Of a DNA stretch of 64,000 bases, positions 15,069 to 28,036 are shown in pieces. The position numbers were made by a program, and so were the translations under genes. The notes beneath the pieces were generated by a model, which saw only the letters and a program-made list of their open reading frames with translations, did not search any database and was not told the origin of the DNA. The stretch lies in the NCBI GenBank assembly GCA_037305845.1, contig CP147778.1, forward strand, positions 608,001 through 672,000, read 5' to 3'. Position 1 is the stretch's first letter, and every line of letters begins with the position of its first letter. The DNA is from Candidatus Freyarchaeum deiterrae. GTDB lineage: Archaea; Asgardarchaeota; Jordiarchaeia; Jordiarchaeales; Jordiarchaeaceae.

Positions 15069-16004
15069 TTGACCAGCGTCATAGAAGTAAGCAATCTCAC
15101 CAAGTACTACGGCGAGCAAACAGCGGTCGACCACATAAGCTTCAAGGTGAAGGCGGGTGAAGTCTTCGGCTTTCTTGGTCCAAATGGTGCAGGTAAGACC
15201 ACAACCATCAGGATGCTCACCGGAATAATTGAGCCGGATGAAGGAACAGCACAAATAATGGGATACGATATTCGCCGCCAAACAGTAAAAGCCAAGGAGC
15301 TAATGGGAATTTTGCCAGAAACATCAAATGCATACGTAGACCTCTCCGCTTGGAACAACCTTATGCTCATGGGAGAAATATACGGAGTTCCAAAAAAAGA
15401 GAGAGAAGAAAAGGCTAAGGAATTACTTCAGAGGCTCGGTCTTTACGAGAGAAAGGATGATCACGTAAAAGGCTTTTCCCAAGGGATGAAGAAAAGACTA
15501 ATGATATGTATGGCTCTGATACACAGCCCCCCGCTCCTATTTCTGGACGAACCCACAAGTGCACTCGATGTTCAGAGCACTAGACTCATCCGAGATATGC
15601 TCAGAGAACTAAATGAAAACGACACAAGCATATTTTTAACTACCCACAACATGGAAGAGGCGAATCTGCTATGCGACAGAGTCGCCATAATTAACCATGG
15701 GAAAATAGCAGCAATAGATAGCCCTGAAAAGCTGAAAAGCAGAATTGGTGGATTGAACTCGGTGGAGGTTAGCTTTACTTCTTCCCCAAAATTAGAAAGA
15801 TTAGCAGAAATAACCAACGTAAGAGAAGTTAAAAAGTTTGGAGATAAGTTCAGATTGTACACAAGCAATCCCAGTGAAGTAATAGCTCAAATAATGGAAT
15901 ACACCCAGAAAAACGATTCACAAATTGTGACTCTTCAAACTCTTGCTCCAACCCTAGAGGATATATTCGTCAAGCTCACAGAAGAGAAAGGAAGGAGTAA
16001 ATAA
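15069..16004 (+). CDS. ABC-2 exporter ATP-binding subunit (copy 1)
   Basis: GPNGAGKTT, FSQGM, LFLDEPT, TTH. Confidence 0.95.
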   Translation: MTSVIEVSNLTKYYGEQTAVDHISFKVKAGEVFGFLGPNGAGKTTTIRMLTGIIEPDEGTAQIMGYDIRRQTVKAKELMGILPETSNAYVDLSAWNNLMLMGEIYGVPKKEREEKAKELLQRLGLYERKDDHVKGFSQGMKKRLMICMALIHSPPLLFLDEPTSALDVQSTRLIRDMLRELNENDTSIFLTTHNMEEANLLCDRVAIINHGKIAAIDSPEKLKSRIGGLNSVEVSFTSSPKLERLAEITNVREVKKFGDKFRLYTSNPSEVIAQIMEYTQKNDSQIVTLQTLAPTLEDIFVKLTEEKGRSK

Positions 16005-16007
16005 ACT

Positions 16008-16763
16008 ATGACAGTTAAAGTGAGACATATTACGCAAAGTAAGCGTGCCTTTGTTATCGCAAAGAAGAATATTCGCATATACTACCTTAAAGGACCGGTA
16101 ATCACTTTCGGGATATTGATGCCGGTGTTCCTTGCCTTAGCTTTCTCTATTGGAAGAAATGTTTCCTTAAGCTCACTAATGCCCGGCTTATTTGCAATGA
16201 CTCTGTTCTTTACGGCAACAGCTGTAGGCCCACTAATCATGCCATGGGAAACTACCATGAGAACCCTTGAGAGATTGGTATCCACTCCAGCGAGCCTCCC
16301 CGCAATCATATTAGGGGACGTAATTGCCTCAGTTATCTTTGGGATCATCATATCTGTCGTGCCTCTTGTAGTTGGAGTATTTACGGGCGTAACCATAGCA
16401 AATTTCCTAATACTAATAGTAGGTATGGTAATTGCAGCATTCTGCTTTTCTTGCCTCGGAGAATTGTTCTCTGTACCTCCTACATCTATGCCAGCCCCGG
16501 TAATGATGCTTGCATCGGTTGTAAGATTCCCCTTGGTATTCATCAGTGGAATTTTTATACCAGTAGAACAATTGCCCGGATGGGGGCAAGCAATAGCACT
16601 CTTCTCCCCCCTCACTTATTTTACAGACCTAGTAAGATACGCTACTCAGGGGTCAGGGTATTTCCCAGTATTTGTGGACATAGGAATGCTCATACTGTTT
16701 AGTGCGATCTTCCTTTTTGCAGCAATAATCATCCACAAACGAAACCTATCAAAAAGGTTTTAG
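16008..16763 (+). CDS. ABC-2 permease (copy 1)
   Basis: Six TM segments, TLERL..TP, FISGIF.P...LP.W. Confidence 0.92.
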   Translation: MTVKVRHITQSKRAFVIAKKNIRIYYLKGPVITFGILMPVFLALAFSIGRNVSLSSLMPGLFAMTLFFTATAVGPLIMPWETTMRTLERLVSTPASLPAIILGDVIASVIFGIIISVVPLVVGVFTGVTIANFLILIVGMVIAAFCFSCLGELFSVPPTSMPAPVMMLASVVRFPLVFISGIFIPVEQLPGWGQAIALFSPLTYFTDLVRYATQGSGYFPVFVDIGMLILFSAIFLFAAIIIHKRNLSKRF

Positions 16764-17300
16764 AAACGATTTTAAGAGGCTTGAAGCCTCAACTTTTTTT
16801 CTCATCAGGTCTAAATATTTACCTAGCTATGCAAGTCTAGCACAAGTGAATCATTTTAAAAAAAGCCCTAGAAGAATCATATAAAATCCAAAATAGGTAT
16901 ATATTTAGCCTTTTTTGGTTTTTCAGCTTTAGAACGTACTTAAGCATGATTCGCAAGATTATTGCAATGATGGATGTGTCTGACAAAGAATCCGTTGCCG
17001 AAGCCCTTGGAAATCACCATGCTGGGCTATGAGGTAGTCGAGAAGATAGAAGCTCTACACCACATCGGCCAGAATACTACTCCCAAAAGATTGGGTCGGA
17101 AAAAGGGTCAGAGTTGTCCGACTGGCCTCCTAAAAGGACGGTTGGGAGAAGAGCTAAGTACATACGATAATAAAAAAGATTTTTTTATAAATCTAATAAT
17201 CTTAAAATAGATAAGAGGCTTCAATCTCCGAAAGGCGTAAATTTAGACATGGTTACACATGCTAATTGTAAAATTTTAGATTATTACTAGAGGACTTGAA

Positions 17301-17495
17301 ATGTTTATTAATATTCTCGGAACTACTGGCATGTGCGGATGTCCAAGTCATTATTTGAGACCAGGATTCGGAGAAGGCGTAACGGAAATCTTAACAAAAG
17401 GGGAAAGGACAGAAACGCTAAAGGATTACAAAAGAATCCCAGAGAAAGAGCTTGAAAGTGTGAATTGGGGAATGAGAAGGCTCAAAGGAGAATAG
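17301..17495 (+). CDS. Degenerate paralogue of the small Cys/coiled-coil protein
   Basis: GMCGC..Y L.PGF and LKDYK.I.EKELESVN shared with 14831-15049; altered N-terminus and a Pro in the coiled coil. Confidence 0.5.
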   Translation: MFINILGTTGMCGCPSHYLRPGFGEGVTEILTKGERTETLKDYKRIPEKELESVNWGMRRLKGE

Positions 17496-17513
17496 AGGGG
17501 GGCATTAAGTACA

Positions 17514-18440
17514 TTGAGCAGTATCATAAAAGTAAGTAATCTTACCAAGTATTATGGCGAGCTAACAGCTGTCGATCACCTAAGCTTCGAGGTTGAGAAG
17601 GGAGAGTTCTTCGGCTTTCTTGGCCCAAATGGGGCGGGTAAAACCACCACCATCAGGATGCTCACCGGGATAATTGAGCCGGATGAAGGAACAGCACAAA
17701 TAATGGGTCATGATATTCGCCGCGAAACAGTAAAGGCCAAGGAGGTTATGGGAATTTTGCCAGAAACGGCAAATGCGTACGTAGACATCTCCGCTTGGCA
17801 CAACCTTATGCTCATGGGAGAGCTCTATGATGTTCCCAAAAAAGAGAGAGAAGAGAGGGCTAAGGAATTACTTGAGAGGTTTGATCTTTACGATAGAAAG
17901 GATAGTCATGTAAAAGATTTTTCTCATGGAATGACGCAAAGATTGATGATATGTATGGCTCTAATACACACGCCCCCGGTTCTATTTCTGGACGAACCTA
18001 CAACTGCACTCGATGTTCATAGCACTAGGCTCATCCGAAGCATGCTTCGAGAACTAAATGAAAATGGAGTCACCATATTTTTAACAACTCACAATATGGA
18101 AGAGGCTAATCTACTGTGTGAGAGAGTAGCTATCATTAACCATGGGAAAATAGCAGCAATAGATAGCCCTGAAAAGCTTAAAGTCAGAATTGGCGGATTG
18201 AACTCGGTGGAGGTTAGCTTCACCTCGCCCCCTAATTTAGAAGAATTAGCTGAAATACCTTCAGTGAGGGAAGTGAAAAGATTTGGAGATAAGGTCAGAC
18301 TGTACACCAGTAATCCTGGTGAGGTAGCAATGAGCGTAACTGAGTATGCGCAAAAGATTAATTCGAGTATAGTGACTATTCAGACGCTTTCCCCAAACCT
18401 TGAGGAAGTGTTTGTTATGCTCACAGAGGGAAAGGAGTGA
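17514..18440 (+). CDS. ABC-2 exporter ATP-binding subunit (copy 2)
   Basis: Walker A/B motifs; close paralogue of 15069-16004. Confidence 0.95.
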   Translation: MSSIIKVSNLTKYYGELTAVDHLSFEVEKGEFFGFLGPNGAGKTTTIRMLTGIIEPDEGTAQIMGHDIRRETVKAKEVMGILPETANAYVDISAWHNLMLMGELYDVPKKEREERAKELLERFDLYDRKDSHVKDFSHGMTQRLMICMALIHTPPVLFLDEPTTALDVHSTRLIRSMLRELNENGVTIFLTTHNMEEANLLCERVAIINHGKIAAIDSPEKLKVRIGGLNSVEVSFTSPPNLEELAEIPSVREVKRFGDKVRLYTSNPGEVAMSVTEYAQKINSSIVTIQTLSPNLEEVFVMLTEGKE

Positions 18441-18449
18441 AAGGCAACT

Positions 18450-19205
18450 ATGATATTTAACGGAGGATTCAATAAGCAAATGAAACATGCACTTGCTATA
18501 GCAAAAAAGGACATTCGTATATACTACTTAAAGGGCTCAGTATTCACTTTCGGAGTATTAATTCCTTTATTCCTCTTCTTAGCGTTCTCCGTTGGAAGAA
18601 ATATTCCTATAGGTCAACAGATATCCGGCTTATTGGGAATGACTCTGTTATTTACGGCAACAGCTGTAAGCCCGATAATCATGCCATGGGAAGGGACTAG
18701 GAGAACACTTGAGAGATTGGTTTCTACTCCGGTCTCTCTTTCAACGATCATACTGGGGGATGTAATTGCTTCGTTCATATTTGGAATTATTATATCTATT
18801 GTGCCTATTGCTGCCGGGCTAATTATTGGCGTACCCATAGAGAATCCTATAATACTGGTAGTGGGGATAATACTTGCATCATTCTGCTTTTCTTGCATCG
18901 GAGAACTGTTCGCCACACCACCCACAAACGTACCCTCCACGATAATGATGCTTTCGTCGCTAATAAAATTCCCACTATTATTTGTCAGCGGAATCTTCGT
19001 ACCAATTCAACAATTGCCCGGATGGGGGCAGGCAGTAGCGGTCTTCTCTCCCCTCACCTATTTTACAGACCTAGCAAATTATGTAACTCAGGGGTCGGGG
19101 TATTTCCCAGTATTTGTGGACATAGGAATGCTCATACTGTTTAGCGCGATCTTCCTCCTCGCAGCAATATATCTCCACAAGCGAACTCTATCAAGCAGAC
19201 TATAA
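18450..19205 (+). CDS. ABC-2 permease (copy 2)
   Basis: Paralogue of 16008-16763. Confidence 0.92.
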   Translation: MIFNGGFNKQMKHALAIAKKDIRIYYLKGSVFTFGVLIPLFLFLAFSVGRNIPIGQQISGLLGMTLLFTATAVSPIIMPWEGTRRTLERLVSTPVSLSTIILGDVIASFIFGIIISIVPIAAGLIIGVPIENPIILVVGIILASFCFSCIGELFATPPTNVPSTIMMLSSLIKFPLLFVSGIFVPIQQLPGWGQAVAVFSPLTYFTDLANYVTQGSGYFPVFVDIGMLILFSAIFLLAAIYLHKRTLSSRL

Positions 19206-20683: not shown

Positions 20684-20708
20684 TATCGATAAATGTAAAT
20701 ATATCTAT
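20684..20708. promoter_or_regulatory. Putative ArsR-type operator upstream of acr3
   Basis: TATCG-N4-ATG-N3-ATATATCTAT, shared with 26318-26342. Confidence 0.55.
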
Positions 20709-21128: not shown

Positions 21129-22586
21129 GTGACCACGAGCGGGATAACATCTTCGGTAGAGGTTTTAAAATCTACCATCGATAACAGATTTGTGCGTTTT
21201 CTTTTAAGAAGGCTAACCAGTAAGTGCGAAAAGGATGGCAAGAGCCGCCTAGGTGTCGCTCTGGAGCTCTTCTCAGGCGCAAGAGAAAAGGGTTGTTTCA
21301 CGTGCAGCCATTTAGCTCTACCTATTGTTCGCTGGGCTATAGGCAGGGGAGGATCGGCATTTGGTGTTTCGGGAGAGGATATGAAAAATAGATTCAAGGA
21401 TCCTTACTGGTGCACTGGTCTTATAGATGTGATTAAGGGAATTGCAAAGTATGGCATAAAAAAACCATTCGTTCCCGGTGCGCCGTTCCTGATTGTGTGG
21501 GATTACACAAACGCCTGCAACTTGAAATGCAAACACTGCTACGCCTCTGCTGGAAAACCCTTACCTAACGAGTTGAGTAGTGAAGAGGCACTTAGAATTG
21601 CGGACGAGCTTGCCGATGCCGGAGTTACCGCTGTTGCCTTTTCAGGTGGAGAACCCTTGATGCGAAAAGACATTTTCAAAACCATAAAACGTCTGAGAGA
21701 CCATGGAGTGTACCCAGCCGTGGCATCAAACGGGACTCTCATAAACAAAGAAATGGCTAAGAAACTTGCGAAAAGTGGTGTGGGTTTTGTGCAGATAAGC
21801 CTCGACGGAGCAAATTCCAATACCCACGACAGTTTTCGTGGCATACCCGGAGCGTACGAGGAAACGCTCTTAGGAATAAAGAACTGCGTCGAAAACGATT
21901 TATTTGTTGAGGCATCAACTACAGCCACAAAACTGAACTATTTGGAGATTCCAAGAATCGCAGATCTATGCGAGGAGCTTGGCGTTGACTGGTACATGAT
22001 TTACAACTTTGTGCCGACGGGTAGAGGGAACTTCATCACAGAAAACGACCTCTCTCCAGAGGAGAGAGAAGAACTACTCAAAACGCTGTGGAAAAGACTA
22101 CGTAATGGTGGAAAAATGCAATATCTGTCCACCGCTCCTCAGTTTGCAAGAGTCGCCCTACAAGATGAAAATGGATCGGAAAATAGGATTATACCAGGGC
22201 ACTTCTACAATCCTGTTCTTGCGGACCAGCTTCAAAACTTGGGAGATTTTATCGGTGGATGTGGAGCGGGGAGAATGTATGCAGGTCTTGAACCAGATGG
22301 TACTCTTAAGCCATGTGTTTTCCTGCCATTAAAATTGGGAAATCTTCGGGAGCAGAAACTTGAAGAAATATGGGACAGCCACCCTATTCTGAAAACTCTT
22401 AGAGACAGAACCCAGCTGAAAGGAAATTGTAGGAAATGCCAGTATAGAGAAATGTGTGGAGGATGCAGAGCCAGAGCCTACGGATACTTCGGTGACATCA
22501 CCGCTCCTGACCCGGGATGCATAAACAACACAGATGCTTTCGAAAAAATAGTAGAAAAAGAAAAGGAAAAAGAGATCAGTATTTGA
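21129..22586 (+). CDS. Radical SAM/SPASM-domain protein
   Basis: CNLKCKHC, FSGGEPL, SPASM GCGAGR...PC and C..C.....CGGCRARAY...DPGC. Confidence 0.93.
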   Translation: MTTSGITSSVEVLKSTIDNRFVRFLLRRLTSKCEKDGKSRLGVALELFSGAREKGCFTCSHLALPIVRWAIGRGGSAFGVSGEDMKNRFKDPYWCTGLIDVIKGIAKYGIKKPFVPGAPFLIVWDYTNACNLKCKHCYASAGKPLPNELSSEEALRIADELADAGVTAVAFSGGEPLMRKDIFKTIKRLRDHGVYPAVASNGTLINKEMAKKLAKSGVGFVQISLDGANSNTHDSFRGIPGAYEETLLGIKNCVENDLFVEASTTATKLNYLEIPRIADLCEELGVDWYMIYNFVPTGRGNFITENDLSPEEREELLKTLWKRLRNGGKMQYLSTAPQFARVALQDENGSENRIIPGHFYNPVLADQLQNLGDFIGGCGAGRMYAGLEPDGTLKPCVFLPLKLGNLREQKLEEIWDSHPILKTLRDRTQLKGNCRKCQYREMCGGCRARAYGYFGDITAPDPGCINNTDAFEKIVEKEKEKEISI

Positions 22587-23165: not shown

Positions 23166-23602
23166 TAGTAATCACCCTCCTTTTTTTCTCCCAGTAACTC
23201 ATCAATTTTTTGTGTGATTTTTTCCGCAAGTTTACGAGATAATTTTTTCGCGTTTTTTCCTAAAGGAAAAACACTTTCCTCGGGTTTTAAATCACGGTTT
23301 TCTTTCAATATATCTGTGGTCATGAATTGAGCATCAACTTTTCCAACAGCTTCGGAAACATCATTATACGCACACTTGAGAGGGCAACCATCAATCACAA
23401 TGACCTTGTTCGATTTTAGTTTATCAATCACTTCCTTTTTACCTTTAACAATTAATGGAAGACATTCAATATCAGACTTGCCTTTAGCTAACTCATTCAC
23501 CACAATATATGCAGCTTCTCTGCCTAGTCCACCAAAAACTTTTCCGATTCCACTGCAAGGAAGTACATAAACTATTTTATTTGTTAATTTAATCGCCTCC
23601 AC
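23165..23602 (-). CDS. DGC-domain putative zinc-binding protein (type A)
   Basis: VLPCSGIGKVFG, CLPL, IDGCPLKCA. Confidence 0.88.
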   Translation of the reverse strand: MEAIKLTNKIVYVLPCSGIGKVFGGLGREAAYIVVNELAKGKSDIECLPLIVKGKKEVIDKLKSNKVIVIDGCPLKCAYNDVSEAVGKVDAQFMTTDILKENRDLKPEESVFPLGKNAKKLSRKLAEKITQKIDELLGEKKEGDY

Positions 23603-24470
23603 TTTTTTTCATGTGTTTTCTTTCCTCTTCTATTTTCTTTTTCATATGCTCAAAATAAGCAGGTCCGTCCATTAGCAATTCTTTATCTTCTTCAAAATTT
23701 TTCAATTCTACTTCTACAAACCATCCTCCACCATAAGGGTCTTGATTCAATAGATGCGGTGAAGCTTCTAATTCCTTGTTCACAGCAGTAACTTTGCCTG
23801 AAGCGGGAGTAATCAGTTGAAGAATAGTCTTAATAGATTCAAAGGATCCGACATCACCGAACTGCTCAAATTCTAAACCAATTTCGGGAAGTTCGACAAA
23901 AATTATGTCACTCGCTTTATTTTGGAGAAAATCGGAAATACCCATAAGTGCTTTTTCACCATTGGGTTTTACCCAACAATCATTTTCATTAAAATAGTAG
24001 CCAGACTTAGGAACTTTGAAATGAAATTTGTCTACAGTAGTTTCAAAATATTCAATTTTGCCTAATTCCCGAACTTCAGTTACTTCTTCCCTTGATTCTT
24101 TTAGATAATCCAAAATCTCTGTTGCCATACACCCCGCTAACTTTTGCCCTTCCTCACTCAAAATGAGAGATTTTCCCGGCTTTAACTTATATTTTTTAGT
24201 CATGTCAGGAGTAAAGATTTTTTTCCTCGGTTTTAGGGATTTTTGATCAATCAACTTGGTTGCACAGCGAGTCATACACCCATCAATCACAATTATATCA
24301 GATTCCTTCAAAATCTCTTCATATTTTTCGTTACCAGTATTTAATAGAACTGGACATATTAGCTCAATATCAGGATCTTTTTCTATTACTTTTAATGCAG
24401 CATTTCTAGTAATTACGCCTAGAGATTTATCAAGTCCATTGCACGGTAAAATGCAGACTTTTTTTTTCAT
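23589..24470 (-). CDS. DGC domain fused to a glycine cleavage H-like lipoyl-carrier domain
   Basis: N-terminal ILPCNG..CP..IDGCMTRCA; C-terminal WV....A.MGISDFLQ...DI.FVELP..G, ESIK lipoyl lysine, VN..L...P.L.N.DPYG.GW. Confidence 0.9.
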   Translation of the reverse strand: MKKKVCILPCNGLDKSLGVITRNAALKVIEKDPDIELICPVLLNTGNEKYEEILKESDIIVIDGCMTRCATKLIDQKSLKPRKKIFTPDMTKKYKLKPGKSLILSEEGQKLAGCMATEILDYLKESREEVTEVRELGKIEYFETTVDKFHFKVPKSGYYFNENDCWVKPNGEKALMGISDFLQNKASDIIFVELPEIGLEFEQFGDVGSFESIKTILQLITPASGKVTAVNKELEASPHLLNQDPYGGGWFVEVELKNFEEDKELLMDGPAYFEHMKKKIEEERKHMKKSGGD

Positions 24471-25272: not shown

Positions 25273-25713
25273 TCATTTCTCTTGTTCTTCCTCGTTCGTC
25301 TGTTTCATTTCGCTTAGTATTCTGTCCACTTCCTCTGCGATTTTCTCCGCAACTCTCTGAGCCAGCTTTTCGCCTTCTTCATCTAGTTTAGCTCTGGATT
25401 CAGCTTTGAGCTTACATTCATTCATTATCTCGGGAATCTGAATTACCGCAGCCAAGTTTCCTTTATGCTTTCTAATACTCTTTTCAGCACATCTCTTGTC
25501 ACAACCATCAACGACAATTGTGGGTTGTTTCTTAACAAAATCCTGATCTTCTTTTCCACCAGCAAGGTAGAGAGGTAAGCAGATTGTCATGGTTTGGGTG
25601 GGTCTTAACTTCTCCAAAACGATACGCACAGCAATCCTGGTGACTGTTCCCTCCGGTATTTCTTCACCACTGCAAGGTACAATTCCCACTATAGGTATCA
25701 TCAACACCTTCAA
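25273..25713 (-). CDS. DGC-domain protein (type B)
   Basis: IVPCSGE...EGT.TR, CLPLYLAGG, VDGCDKRCA. Confidence 0.87.
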   Translation of the reverse strand: MKVLMIPIVGIVPCSGEEIPEGTVTRIAVRIVLEKLRPTQTMTICLPLYLAGGKEDQDFVKKQPTIVVDGCDKRCAEKSIRKHKGNLAAVIQIPEIMNECKLKAESRAKLDEEGEKLAQRVAEKIAEEVDRILSEMKQTNEEEQEK

Positions 25714-26123
25714 CCTCCTTCAGACTCTAATATCCTATCAATTTCTAGTGCAATTTTTTGAGCCATTATTTCTGCTAACCTTTTCCCCTTTGGGTCAAGT
25801 TCTCTTATGGCAGTTTGATTAGGCTTCAAGTCTCTGTTTTCTTTCAGCACACTGGTAACATTAACTTTGTTAACTATTCTTCCGCCAGCGTTTTTGACCG
25901 CTAACTCTGCACACTCTGTTGGGCAACCGTTAATAACGATACATAGGTTCTCTTGAACGAGCCTCCTAGCATCATCGTCCCCCACCACCAGCAACGGTAG
26001 ACAAGTGATTAAGGTTTTTTCTGGTCTCAGTTGCTCGACAACCTTGTAGGCTGCTTCGCGTGTAATTGTTCCAAAAACTTTTCCCACACCACTGCACGGT
26101 AAAACCACAACTTTTTTAGTCAG
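25710..26123 (-). CDS. DGC-domain protein (type A); start uncertain (CTG 26123 or GTG 26108)
   Basis: VLPCSGVGKVFG, CLPL, INGCPTECA. Confidence 0.87.
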   Translation of the reverse strand: MTKKVVVLPCSGVGKVFGTITREAAYKVVEQLRPEKTLITCLPLLVVGDDDARRLVQENLCIVINGCPTECAELAVKNAGGRIVNKVNVTSVLKENRDLKPNQTAIRELDPKGKRLAEIMAQKIALEIDRILESEGG

Positions 26124-26317: not shown

Positions 26318-26342
26318 TATCGTTTCATGACGATATATCTAT
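26318..26342. promoter_or_regulatory. Putative ArsR-type operator upstream of the DGC operon
   Basis: Palindrome TATCGT-N6-ACGATA next to a minus-strand TTTAAATA TATA box; matches the acr3 upstream motif. Confidence 0.6.
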
Positions 26343-27166: not shown

Positions 27167-27706
27167 AGAACTTTTCCTCCTATTATTTTAAACATAATTT
27201 TTGAACACCGTAAATACATAATTTTTGTTTTGATCATGTCTTGAGAGATTGTGATTTGAGCTCAGCGTCAGCGTTCCGGTTCTTTCTTGTGTTATAATTA
27301 AATTGCAAGTTTTTAAATTTATTGGTATATGACAATATATCAATAATAGTAAAATTACATACTCTAAACAAAGCAGTATCACTTATTTTGATATATTTAT
27401 ATTTTCTATTTTATTATTTAGGATATGGCTCAGGATCAGAGTTAACCTTTTAGACATCACTGTTCATAGGAGCTATGAATTGTGCGTTGAAGTGCCTGCT
27501 AATTTATATATTCAAAATCTCGAAATCTATGCGAATATTACTATATTTCAATAATTTTATAATAGTCATGTACATTAAATATTATTTAGAGAATAGACAA
27601 AGAAAGATTCGAAAACTCCTATCAGACTATCCTTGCACATATTGTTGAAGACTAGAAAAAATATGTCAATGGGTTAACGCTTGCCTCAAGTTAAGGAGGG
27701 AATTTA

Positions 27707-28036
27707 TTGGCCATCGAGAAATTAATTACGAAAAAAAATGTGGAGTTATTGAAAGCATTAGCAGATGAAACAAGATTGAAAATACTTCAGTTTTTGGGCG
27801 TGGAGGAGAAGTGTCAGTGTGATATTGTCCCTGCTATGGAAAAATCGCAGTCCACAATTTCTCAACACCTTCAAATTCTAACAAATTCGGGAGTTCTGGA
27901 GTACCGAAAAGATGGACAGAGAAGCCTCTACAAATTGAGAGATGAAAGAATACACAAAATAACCGAATTAATTAATAGCATTTCCAAAGATTCCCTTTTA
28001 GAAATATCCAAACTAGCAAAATCAATCAAAAAATAG
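27707..28036 (+). CDS. arsR: ArsR/SmtB metalloregulator
   Basis: KALADETRLKIL, EKCQCDI (alpha3 CxC site), SQSTISQHL..L...G. Confidence 0.92.
   Translation: MAIEKLITKKNVELLKALADETRLKILQFLGVEEKCQCDIVPAMEKSQSTISQHLQILTNSGVLEYRKDGQRSLYKLRDERIHKITELINSISKDSLLEISKLAKSIKK

Follow-up and report, generated by a model that had tools for sequence, protein, structure and literature searches.

A lipoyl-carrier GcvH domain fused to a four-cysteine DGC domain within a conserved iron-sulfur cassette linked to arsenic genes

Described lipoyl-carrier systems and the DGC::GcvH fusion

LbpA, a GcvH-like protein, carries a strictly conserved lysine together with two conserved cysteines, one N-terminal and one C-terminal; its gene lies in or beside the hdrC1B1A-hyp-hdrC2B2 cluster, and the protein has been proposed as a sulfur carrier in sHdr sulfur oxidation (Cao et al. 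2018, eLife, PMC6067878). Ligases are reported to tell GcvH from LbpA mainly by surface charge (2026 preprint, 10.64898/2026.10.01.755906). Here we analyse a stretch of 64,000 nucleotides (the window; contig CP147778.1, positions 608,001 to 672,000) from the genome of Candidatus Freyarchaeum deiterrae, which consists of one closed contig of 3.58 Mb. The subject is a 293-residue protein that joins an N-terminal DGC domain to a C-terminal GcvH lipoyl-carrier domain. We lean, with modest confidence, towards the view that this fusion is lipoylated and serves as the swinging-arm subunit in a thiol/Fe-S redox module for arsenic that is under the control of ArsR. The nearest precedent for the gene cassette in which it lies is LbpA/sHdr, whose full set of defining cysteines and Hdr partners is missing here.

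The fusion resembles LbpA in its GcvH fold, its strictly conserved lipoyl lysine and its apparent role outside glycine cleavage, in being encoded with Hdr-related Fe-S proteins and, at some loci, a dedicated LplA-type ligase, and in having an extra cysteine near the N-terminus of the H fold (C165). Nevertheless, the conserved C-terminal cysteine of the LbpA signature is absent from the GcvH domain, which leaves the two-cysteine pattern incomplete, and no hdr cluster adjoins the gene: the cassette contains a free homologue of the HdrA N-terminal domain and a ferredoxin, while HdrB/C and CCG-domain proteins are not among its recurrent neighbours. The surface of the fusion's H-domain is acidic instead of basic, so that by charge, a crude criterion, the fusion is GcvH-like. 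Furthermore, the H-domain is joined to a DGC Cys4 domain, and the gene stands in a probable arsenic regulon of anaerobic fermenters, acetogens and Asgard archaea, whereas LbpA is found in sulfur oxidisers.

With canonical GcvH (PF01597, TIGR00527) the fusion shares the fold, the E-S-x-K hairpin, the acidic surface and 30-40 % identity to solved H-proteins; its score, hairpin lysine (E-S-V-K in the family) and fold all place it in the PF01597 superfamily. It differs in scoring below the equivalog cut-offs of TIGR00527 and NF002270 (109 vs 115.85 and 111.3 vs 117), in apparently having no genomic link to gcvT or gcvP, in the replacement of the HEW glutamate by cysteine, in an N-terminal beta-hairpin extension, and in the fusion to DGC itself.

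In the NADH-dependent peroxidase relay Lpd-DlaT-AhpD-AhpC of Mycobacterium tuberculosis, a stress-defence pathway, Lpd reduces a protein-bound lipoyl group, and this group acts as the dithiol donor for a small cysteine protein. The relay is the best mechanistic analogy for those bacterial loci that include an Lpd gene, although there the carrier is an E2 lipoyl domain, the acceptors are AhpD and AhpC, no ferredoxin or HdrA-like protein feeds electrons in, and the stress is peroxide. The ArsD-ArsA metallochaperone and the thioredoxin-coupled ArsC of the low-molecular-weight protein tyrosine phosphatase (LMW-PTP) type are small, cysteine-rich and ArsR-controlled, bind or reduce arsenicals, and hand them on to efflux. 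These proteins co-occur with the cassette in bacterial loci, but they have no sequence relation to DGC, and none uses lipoate or Fe-S proteins. Finally, GcvH-L of the SirTM/macrodomain operon (Streptococcus pyogenes, PDB 5a35; Foldseek E 2.8e-7) is likewise a lipoyl carrier with its own LplA in a stress operon; however, the fusion reaches only 45.7 bits against the cut-off of 144.05 for the corresponding model (TIGR03077, 'not_gcvH'), neither a sirtuin nor a macrodomain is among the recurrent neighbours of the cassette, and the partner proteins differ.

The GcvH domain and its predicted lipoyl lysine

The N-terminal part of the fusion matches PF08859 (DGC; 66 bits against a Pfam cut-off of 27) over residues 7-97, and the C-terminal part matches PF01597 (GCV_H; 105.4 bits against 22.2) over residues 158-278. 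The DGC tripeptide itself occupies residues 63-65, and the four conserved cysteines of the domain (C10, C39, C65 and C69), together with the profile match, identify it as a member of the DGC family. The original prediction had taken the lysine of the motif GSFESIKT for the lipoyl-acceptor position and had noted that its domain is joined to a four-cysteine DGC domain; both observations hold. The motif corresponds to residues 208-215, with the codon of K214 read at 23831-23829, and phmmer aligns the region with the H-protein of Thermus thermophilus (1onl; E 9.7e-24), 'fesikt' lying over 'vesvkt', the hairpin of the lipoyl lysine.

An AlphaFold2 model of the fusion, built on 62 homologues, has a mean pLDDT of 94.3. 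Its C-terminal domain superimposes on the bovine, human, pea, Thermus and E. coli H-proteins with TM scores of 0.90-0.94 and rmsd values of 0.9-1.4 Å (Foldseek; the matches include 3klr, 1onl and 1htp). The agreement is far beyond chance, and we take this domain for a genuine H-protein domain with the lipoyl-acceptor lysine. The GcvH core is acidic (pI 4.3), like the canonical GcvH1 of the same genome.

A search with the fusion protein returned 833 homologues, and among the best 120, which were inspected, nearly all are DGC+GcvH fusions, mostly of 285-301 residues. The best are named as Jord-, Loki-, Thor-, Heimdall- and Hermodarchaeota, the closest being from Jordarchaeaceae with 82-83 % identity, which assigns the window to an Asgard archaeon of the Jord/Freyarchaeia lineage. 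A scan of species-representative genomes located 238 loci, of which 80 were retrieved for neighbourhood comparison; the bacterial ones include Acetobacterium, Eubacterium callanderi, Clostridium ljungdahlii, Clostridium ragsdalei, Desulfosporosinus and Lucifera. Conservation was assessed on the 74 full-length fusion open reading frames (ORFs) in the 80 loci, which span Archaea and Bacteria at 40-83 % identity, and on a wider alignment (A2) of 62 sequences that reaches down to 23 % identity.

E211, S212 and K214 are invariant in all 74 sequences, and K214 is also invariant throughout A2, together with C10, C65 and C69. The case for the lysine had been made to depend on its conservation among fusion homologues, and it is kept in every one of them. 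No residue of the protein is better conserved than this lysine. Given that E-S-x-K is strictly invariant over the range of 23-83 % identity, we argue that the lysine is used. As for the cysteines, C65 and C69 are present in 74/74 fusions, C10 is cysteine in all 70 ungapped rows, C39 in 68/74 and C165, towards the N-terminal side of the GcvH domain, in 63/74. The last of these stands at the position of the glutamate of the canonical HEW motif, which is replaced by Cys or Ser in 70/74 fusions. We assume that this glutamate contacts aminomethyl-lipoamide in the pea H-protein; as the canonical GcvH1 of the same genome itself has Gln at the position, the replacement deserves no more than a minor remark. 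Among Asgard archaea the fusion is unevenly distributed, being carried by about 21 of the 151 genomes sampled, or about one in seven, which fits an accessory resistance module.

Some database homologues have other architectures. One protein of 605 residues (P0245) consists of a dihydrolipoyl-dehydrogenase-like flavoprotein joined to a GcvH domain that belongs to the same subfamily and keeps the lipoyl lysine. Another, of 1391 residues (P0152), combines three GcvH domains with FAD_binding_4/FAD-oxidase_C, a 4Fe-4S dicluster domain and two CCG (HdrB/D-type) domains, an arrangement that suggests lipoyl arms serviced by a catalytic domain of the heterodisulfide-reductase type. A third, P0186, was considered as a reversed GcvH-DGC fusion and rejected; its middle part is non-homologous and of low complexity, and it probably represents two adjacent genes merged through a frameshift.

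The original prediction had called for a check of the genome for lipoate ligase or synthase genes. The genome encodes two lipoate-protein ligases, a 255-residue LplA-large protein and a 365-residue LplA-LplB fused ligase, as well as LipS1 (278.5 bits against a cut-off of 230), whose gene adjoins a divergent radical-SAM gene. There is thus good support for lipoate salvage by ligation but only partial support for de novo sulfur insertion. No 2-oxoacid dehydrogenase E2 or biotin/lipoyl domain was found in the closed genome, the only lipoyl acceptors of which are five GcvH-type proteins, all keeping the lysine. Among them, GcvH1 (172 bits) is encoded elsewhere in the genome and is 40 % identical to the GcvH domain of the fusion, while GcvH2 and GcvH3 are basic (pI 8.9 and 8.6). 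The genes gcvT and gcvPA/gcvPB are found at 1.265-1.269 Mb, which puts them about 630 kb away from the fusion gene. From its alignment and invariance K214 is predicted to be lipoylated, and the strongest indirect evidence for a lipoylated, redox-cycled domain comes from the dedicated LplA and Lpd genes found at fusion loci, as detailed below.

The Fe-S/DGC cassette, its arsenic context and a possible mechanism

The fusion gene belongs to a seven-gene operon on the minus strand, the genes of which overlap or abut. In the order of transcription they encode two DGC proteins of 132 and 146 residues, a cysteine-rich protein of 128 residues, a ferredoxin, the DGC::GcvH fusion, and two further DGC proteins, DGC-A and DGC-B. 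The ferredoxin has eight cysteines that are invariant among 63 homologues, and its gene adjoins the fusion in 78 of the 80 loci. The 128-residue protein has five invariant cysteines (C12, C14, C18, C49 and C72); its profile, A3, matches residues 5-93 of HdrA (7bkb_A, E 6.7e-4; also 9sfi and 5odc), and the identity between its Asgard and Firmicutes forms is 62-91 %. We refer to it as the HdrA-N-like protein.

ORFs were called and clustered on the loci related to that of the window, and tblastn was used to follow the gene order. The order HdrA-N-like protein, ferredoxin, fusion, DGC-A, DGC-B is found across the 80 loci, with gaps essentially only at contig ends, in hosts that include Asgard archaea, Bathyarchaeia, Acetobacterium, Clostridium ljungdahlii and Desulfosporosinus. 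In none of the 80 does gcvT or gcvP adjoin the fusion. Such strong conservation of the partners indicates a multi-subunit machine. A literature search found no paper on the fusion or the cassette, most subscription journals being outside its reach, and all of its matches to 'DGC domain' were diguanylate cyclases; the cassette is apparently undescribed so far.

All five DGC domains of the genome lie within the operon cluster of the window. DGC-A has four cysteines that are invariant among 46 orthologues, and DGC-B has four conserved cysteines along with the motifs CSGE and ER.FA. In the AlphaFold2 model of DGC-A (pLDDT 90.8) the fold is alpha/beta and flavodoxin-like, and the four cysteines, which are kept in all three DGC orthologue groups, lie at the C-terminal ends of strands 1-3. 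Owing to this placement, the model suggests that they form a single metal, cluster or dithiol site at the usual ligand-binding edge of the fold, the cofactor being presumably a metal, an Fe-S cluster or redox-active cysteines. VIA-align returned only generic flavodoxin-like and HybD-like matches for DGC-A (best Z 8.8 and 8.7, against a typical background of 7-8). B. subtilis ArsC was dismissed as a structural relative; it gave a weak Foldseek row, with E 0.06 and an rmsd of 11.5 Å.

In the window the operon is flanked by genes for an Acr3-type arsenite permease and an ArsR-family regulator, the former 51 % identical to an Acr3-like gene beside the cassette at another locus (L043). For the wider comparison we used the 45 loci (17 archaeal, 28 bacterial) with at least 5 kb of sequence on both sides, and counted neighbours within 10 kb. 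An ArsR of the C-x-C type and/or an ars structural gene is present in 40 of the 45, and Acr3, ArsA, ArsC, ArsD or ArsP in 26. The archaeal loci have a CxC-type ArsR in 16/17, Acr3 in 8/17 and LplA in 4/17; the bacterial ones have LMW-PTP ArsC in 13/28, ArsA in 11/28, ArsD in 8/28, Acr3 in 7/28, ArsP in 5/28, LplA in 8/28 and an Lpd-like flavoprotein in 14/28. Counted over all 80 loci, LplA stands beside the cassette in 14, and at the bacterial locus that was looked at closely (L092) the Lpd-like gene (L092:7801-9204) is directly upstream of it. The regulators that adjoin the cassette elsewhere are homologous to that of the window and carry a C[VAGQ]C motif in helix 3. Co-localisation across genomes, together with Acr3 and ArsR in the window itself, thus makes the cassette a probable member of an ars regulon, and the arsenic link that had been predicted is borne out in other genomes by the CxC-type ArsR, Acr3, ArsA/D/C/P, dedicated LplA and Lpd-like flavoprotein that accompany it.

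A 22-nucleotide motif, TATYGNTNNATGNNNATATATC, AT-rich and partly palindromic, occurs three times in the window and in none of 100 shuffles, the pattern having been derived from those same three copies. The copies are confined to the island's three promoter-bearing intergenic regions, those of acr3, the operon and arsR. This is suggestive only, and marks the motif as a candidate ArsR operator.

In the mechanism that we favour, K214 would be lipoylated by the cell's own lipoate ligase or ligases, possibly with LipS1. Electrons from the 2x[4Fe-4S] ferredoxin would pass through the HdrA-N-like [4Fe-4S] protein, and in many bacteria also from NAD(P)H via the adjacent Lpd-like flavoprotein, to reduce the lipoyl disulfide. 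The dihydrolipoyl arm would then serve the Cys4 centres of its own DGC domain, of DGC-A and of DGC-B, which may bind a thiophilic arsenical, hand it on or reduce it; the resulting product would be removed by Acr3. What is directly observed is how the domains are arranged, that the lysine is invariant, that lipoylation genes are present, that the cassette is syntenic and that it is linked to arsenic genes; lipoylation itself, the direction of electron flow, the DGC cofactor and the substrate are our inferences. The original prediction had offered two interpretations, a lipoyl swinging arm exchanging metalloid, sulfur or electrons with the DGC cysteines in cis, and a decoy that protects lipoyl enzymes from arsenite. 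The acceptor lysine, the ligases and the arsenic link lend partial support to the swinging arm, and the decoy has lost ground.

Several observations weigh against this mechanism. The inter-domain geometry is undefined in the model of the fusion (pTM 0.63, with a low-confidence linker at residues 121-140). DGC has no sequence relative in the PDB, and Foldseek with the DGC-A model gave no match at E <= 0.001. LipS2 is not recognisable above cut-off in the genome (best 63 bits against 270), which leaves it uncertain whether lipoate is made de novo, and an Lpd gene is present in 0 of the 17 archaeal full-flank loci. Moreover, Cd, Pb and Sb are likewise sensed by regulators of the ArsR/SmtB type that have CxC motifs, and at some loci there are genes for CDF transporters, cysteine desulfurase-like proteins or TauE; the substrate could therefore be another soft metal or metalloid, or sulfur.

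A narrower version of the favoured mechanism, with an arm that shuttles electrons and at no point binds the metalloid, would make the cassette a dedicated disulfide-reductase relay analogous to the thioredoxin system, leading from ferredoxin or NADH through lipoyl-GcvH and the DGC dithiols to the two-electron reduction of arsenate or pentavalent organoarsenicals, directly or by recycling LMW-PTP-type ArsC. Two strictly conserved Fe-S proteins and a frequent Lpd suit such continuous electron flow, and the M. tuberculosis relay supplies a lipoyl-based reductase precedent. The closed genome has Acr3 and ArsR without an LMWPc or PF03960 arsenate reductase, LMWPc is found in 0 of the 4 genomes of its genus, and LMW-PTP ArsC accompanies the cassette in the 13 bacterial loci already mentioned. 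However, these same loci, with LMWPc in 15 of the 20 other fusion-bearing Asgard genomes, show that ArsC is not generally replaced, the persistence of the cassette without ArsC in its own genus speaks against strict dependence on ArsC, and As(V) is presumably scarce in the anoxic habitats of the hosts. On balance a pure electron relay seems unlikely. The idea that the cassette replaces ArsC in general was likewise rejected on the LMWPc and LMW-PTP counts; it holds for the window genome and its genus, which have neither LMWPc nor PF03960. We consider it quite improbable that the arm works as in LbpA, moving sulfane sulfur or a thio-arsenical between cysteine centres, even though the precedent nearest in function pairs a GcvH-like protein with an Hdr-like complex and with ligases of its own (PMC6067878), an HdrA-domain relative is part of the cassette, C165 is so widely kept, cysteine desulfurase-like genes are present in 14 of the 28 bacterial loci, and TauE in some. 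DsrE and TusA, like HdrB/C and CCG-domain proteins, are not among the recurrent neighbours, the C-terminal cysteine of LbpA is absent, the acidic GcvH core stands against the basic recognition surfaces of LbpA (preprint 10.64898/2026.10.01.755906), and the hosts live by fermentation or acetogenesis, not by oxidising sulfur.

A passive decoy, in which the induced, lipoylated fusion soaks up arsenite and spares the essential lipoyl proteins, draws on the operon's apparent control by ArsR, on the genome's lipoyl proteins being of GcvH type only, and on the classic high affinity of the dihydrolipoyl group for As(III). But a stoichiometric sink needs no ferredoxin, no HdrA-like Fe-S protein, no pair of extra ordered DGC proteins and no Lpd, and these partners are very strongly conserved, as the HdrA-N-like protein illustrates across domains of life. 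The fusion is never found alone; that it is fixed among two Fe-S and two DGC proteins, often with Lpd, points to electron flow or catalysis and makes a passive sink very improbable. We give least credence to an ordinary glycine-cleavage H-protein that is incidentally fused, or to a structural GcvH module with an unmodified lysine. The NCBIfam scores just under the GcvH cut-offs and the 40 % identity to GcvH1 would fit, and public records do label the homologues 'glycine cleavage system protein H'; yet the genome has a separate canonical GcvH1 and a distant gcvT/gcvPA/gcvPB set, in the 80 loci the fusion always stands in the Fe-S/DGC cassette and never by gcvT/P, the HEW glutamate is nearly always lost, and E-S-x-K does not vary at all.

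With less confidence than we attach to the swinging-arm module itself, and as a tentative proposal, the protein-bound dihydrolipoyl arm and the DGC proteins, as a new class of Cys4 proteins, may together constitute an arsenical-handling machine, an As(III) chaperone and/or an arsenical reductase, with the arm reduced by ferredoxin via the free HdrA-type domain or by NADH via Lpd; it would be widespread in Asgard archaea, acetogens and other strict anaerobes, and would give lipoate a third, so far undescribed role. Dihydrolipoyl groups are the textbook high-affinity target of As(III), so that, if the proposal is true, arsenite's classic target has been turned into a tool against it. Strict anaerobes do without the O2-dependent detoxifiers ArsH and ArsI, and their ars systems would gain a new component; the recently recognised non-canonical uses of lipoate (LbpA/sHdr) would be extended, and the DGC domain would receive its first functional context, no member of PF08859 having been characterised or solved. 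The occurrence in Asgard archaea bears on the metal and metalloid physiology of that lineage, and the presence of the cassette in genetically tractable acetogens (Acetobacterium woodii, Clostridium ljungdahlii, Eubacterium) makes the idea directly testable.

Feature coordinates and neighbouring genes

Table 1. Features of the fusion gene, its operon and the flanking arsenic genes, in window positions.
Feature	Position	Strand	Basis or remark
DGC::GcvH fusion gene, 293 aa	23589..24470	-	ORF; Pfam DGC and GCV_H
DGC domain, residues 7-97 (Cys10, Cys39, Cys65, Cys69)	24180..24452	-	PF08859 E 3.5e-18; pI 9.3, basic
GcvH lipoyl-carrier domain, residues 158-278	23637..23999	-	PF01597 E 2.3e-30; PDB H-proteins E 1e-23
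Lys214 codon AAG, predicted lipoyl attachment	23829..23831	-	direct read; aligned with lipoyl Lys of 1onl
HdrA-N-terminal-domain-like Fe-S protein, 128 aa	24782..25168	-	no Pfam match; profile A3 against HdrA
2x[4Fe-4S] ferredoxin, 102 aa	24477..24785	-	Fer4 families
DGC-A paralogue, 145 aa	23165..23602	-	PF08859 E 1.2e-16
DGC-B paralogue, 141 aa	22740..23165	-	PF08859 E 2e-11
Second DGC pair, 132 aa and 146 aa, operon head	25273..26108	-	PF08859 E 4e-16, 1.7e-14
Acr3-type arsenite efflux permease, 388 aa	19435..20601	-	PF01758 SBF E 1.4e-50
ArsR-family regulator, CQC motif in helix alpha-3	27707..28036	+	HTH_5 E 1.2e-13
Small CxC protein, 96 aa	26876..27166	-	ORF; no Pfam or NCBIfam match
Operator-like 22-nt motif	26318..26339	+	upstream of operon; repeat family D3
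Operator-like motif, further copy	20684-20705		acr3/rSAM intergenic
Operator-like motif, further copy	27320-27341		CxC gene/arsR intergenic

The small CxC protein of the window has counterparts of 96-97 residues regularly beside the ArsR gene, divergent from the cassette, in 20 archaeal loci, and in 17 archaeal loci an extra DGC protein of 158 residues adjoins it. Between acr3 and the operon lies a gene for a radical SAM (rSAM)/SPASM protein of 485 residues (21129-22586, plus strand), which is AhbD/NirJ2-like but far below the cut-offs; the nearest relative (L013, 77 % identity) is alone in having a close homologue near the cassette, and a different rSAM/SPASM protein of 338 residues recurs in 7 bacterial loci. 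Upstream of acr3 is a tandem-duplicated ABC-2 type transporter pair (15069-19205, plus strand; ATPases of 311/308 and permeases of 251/251 residues). The bacterial neighbours include a class-V aminotransferase resembling cysteine desulfurase in 17 loci (e.g. L074:12394-13545), a 179-residue protein with the PF04060 'FeS' motif in 17 loci (e.g. L062:6084-6623), and a DsbD-type membrane thiol-disulfide transporter in 12 (e.g. L056:5228-5929).

Elsewhere in the genome of Candidatus Freyarchaeum deiterrae (G000:C1:2456197-2457781; L009:6197-7781), a basic GcvH paralogue of 150 residues (pI 8.9, with 'DHCW' for HEW) is followed directly by the gene for the LplA-LplB fused ligase, with genes for Nuo/Mbh-like subunits and a SelD-like gene alongside. 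In charge and in having a dedicated ligase, this arrangement is like an LbpA-type acceptor with its ligase, yet sHdr genes were not seen. The SelD-like ORF (L009:8271-9005) matches only positions 99-342 of the SelD model; the N-terminal portion is perhaps encoded in a different frame or interrupted, for which a selenocysteine codon or a split gene would be possible reasons.

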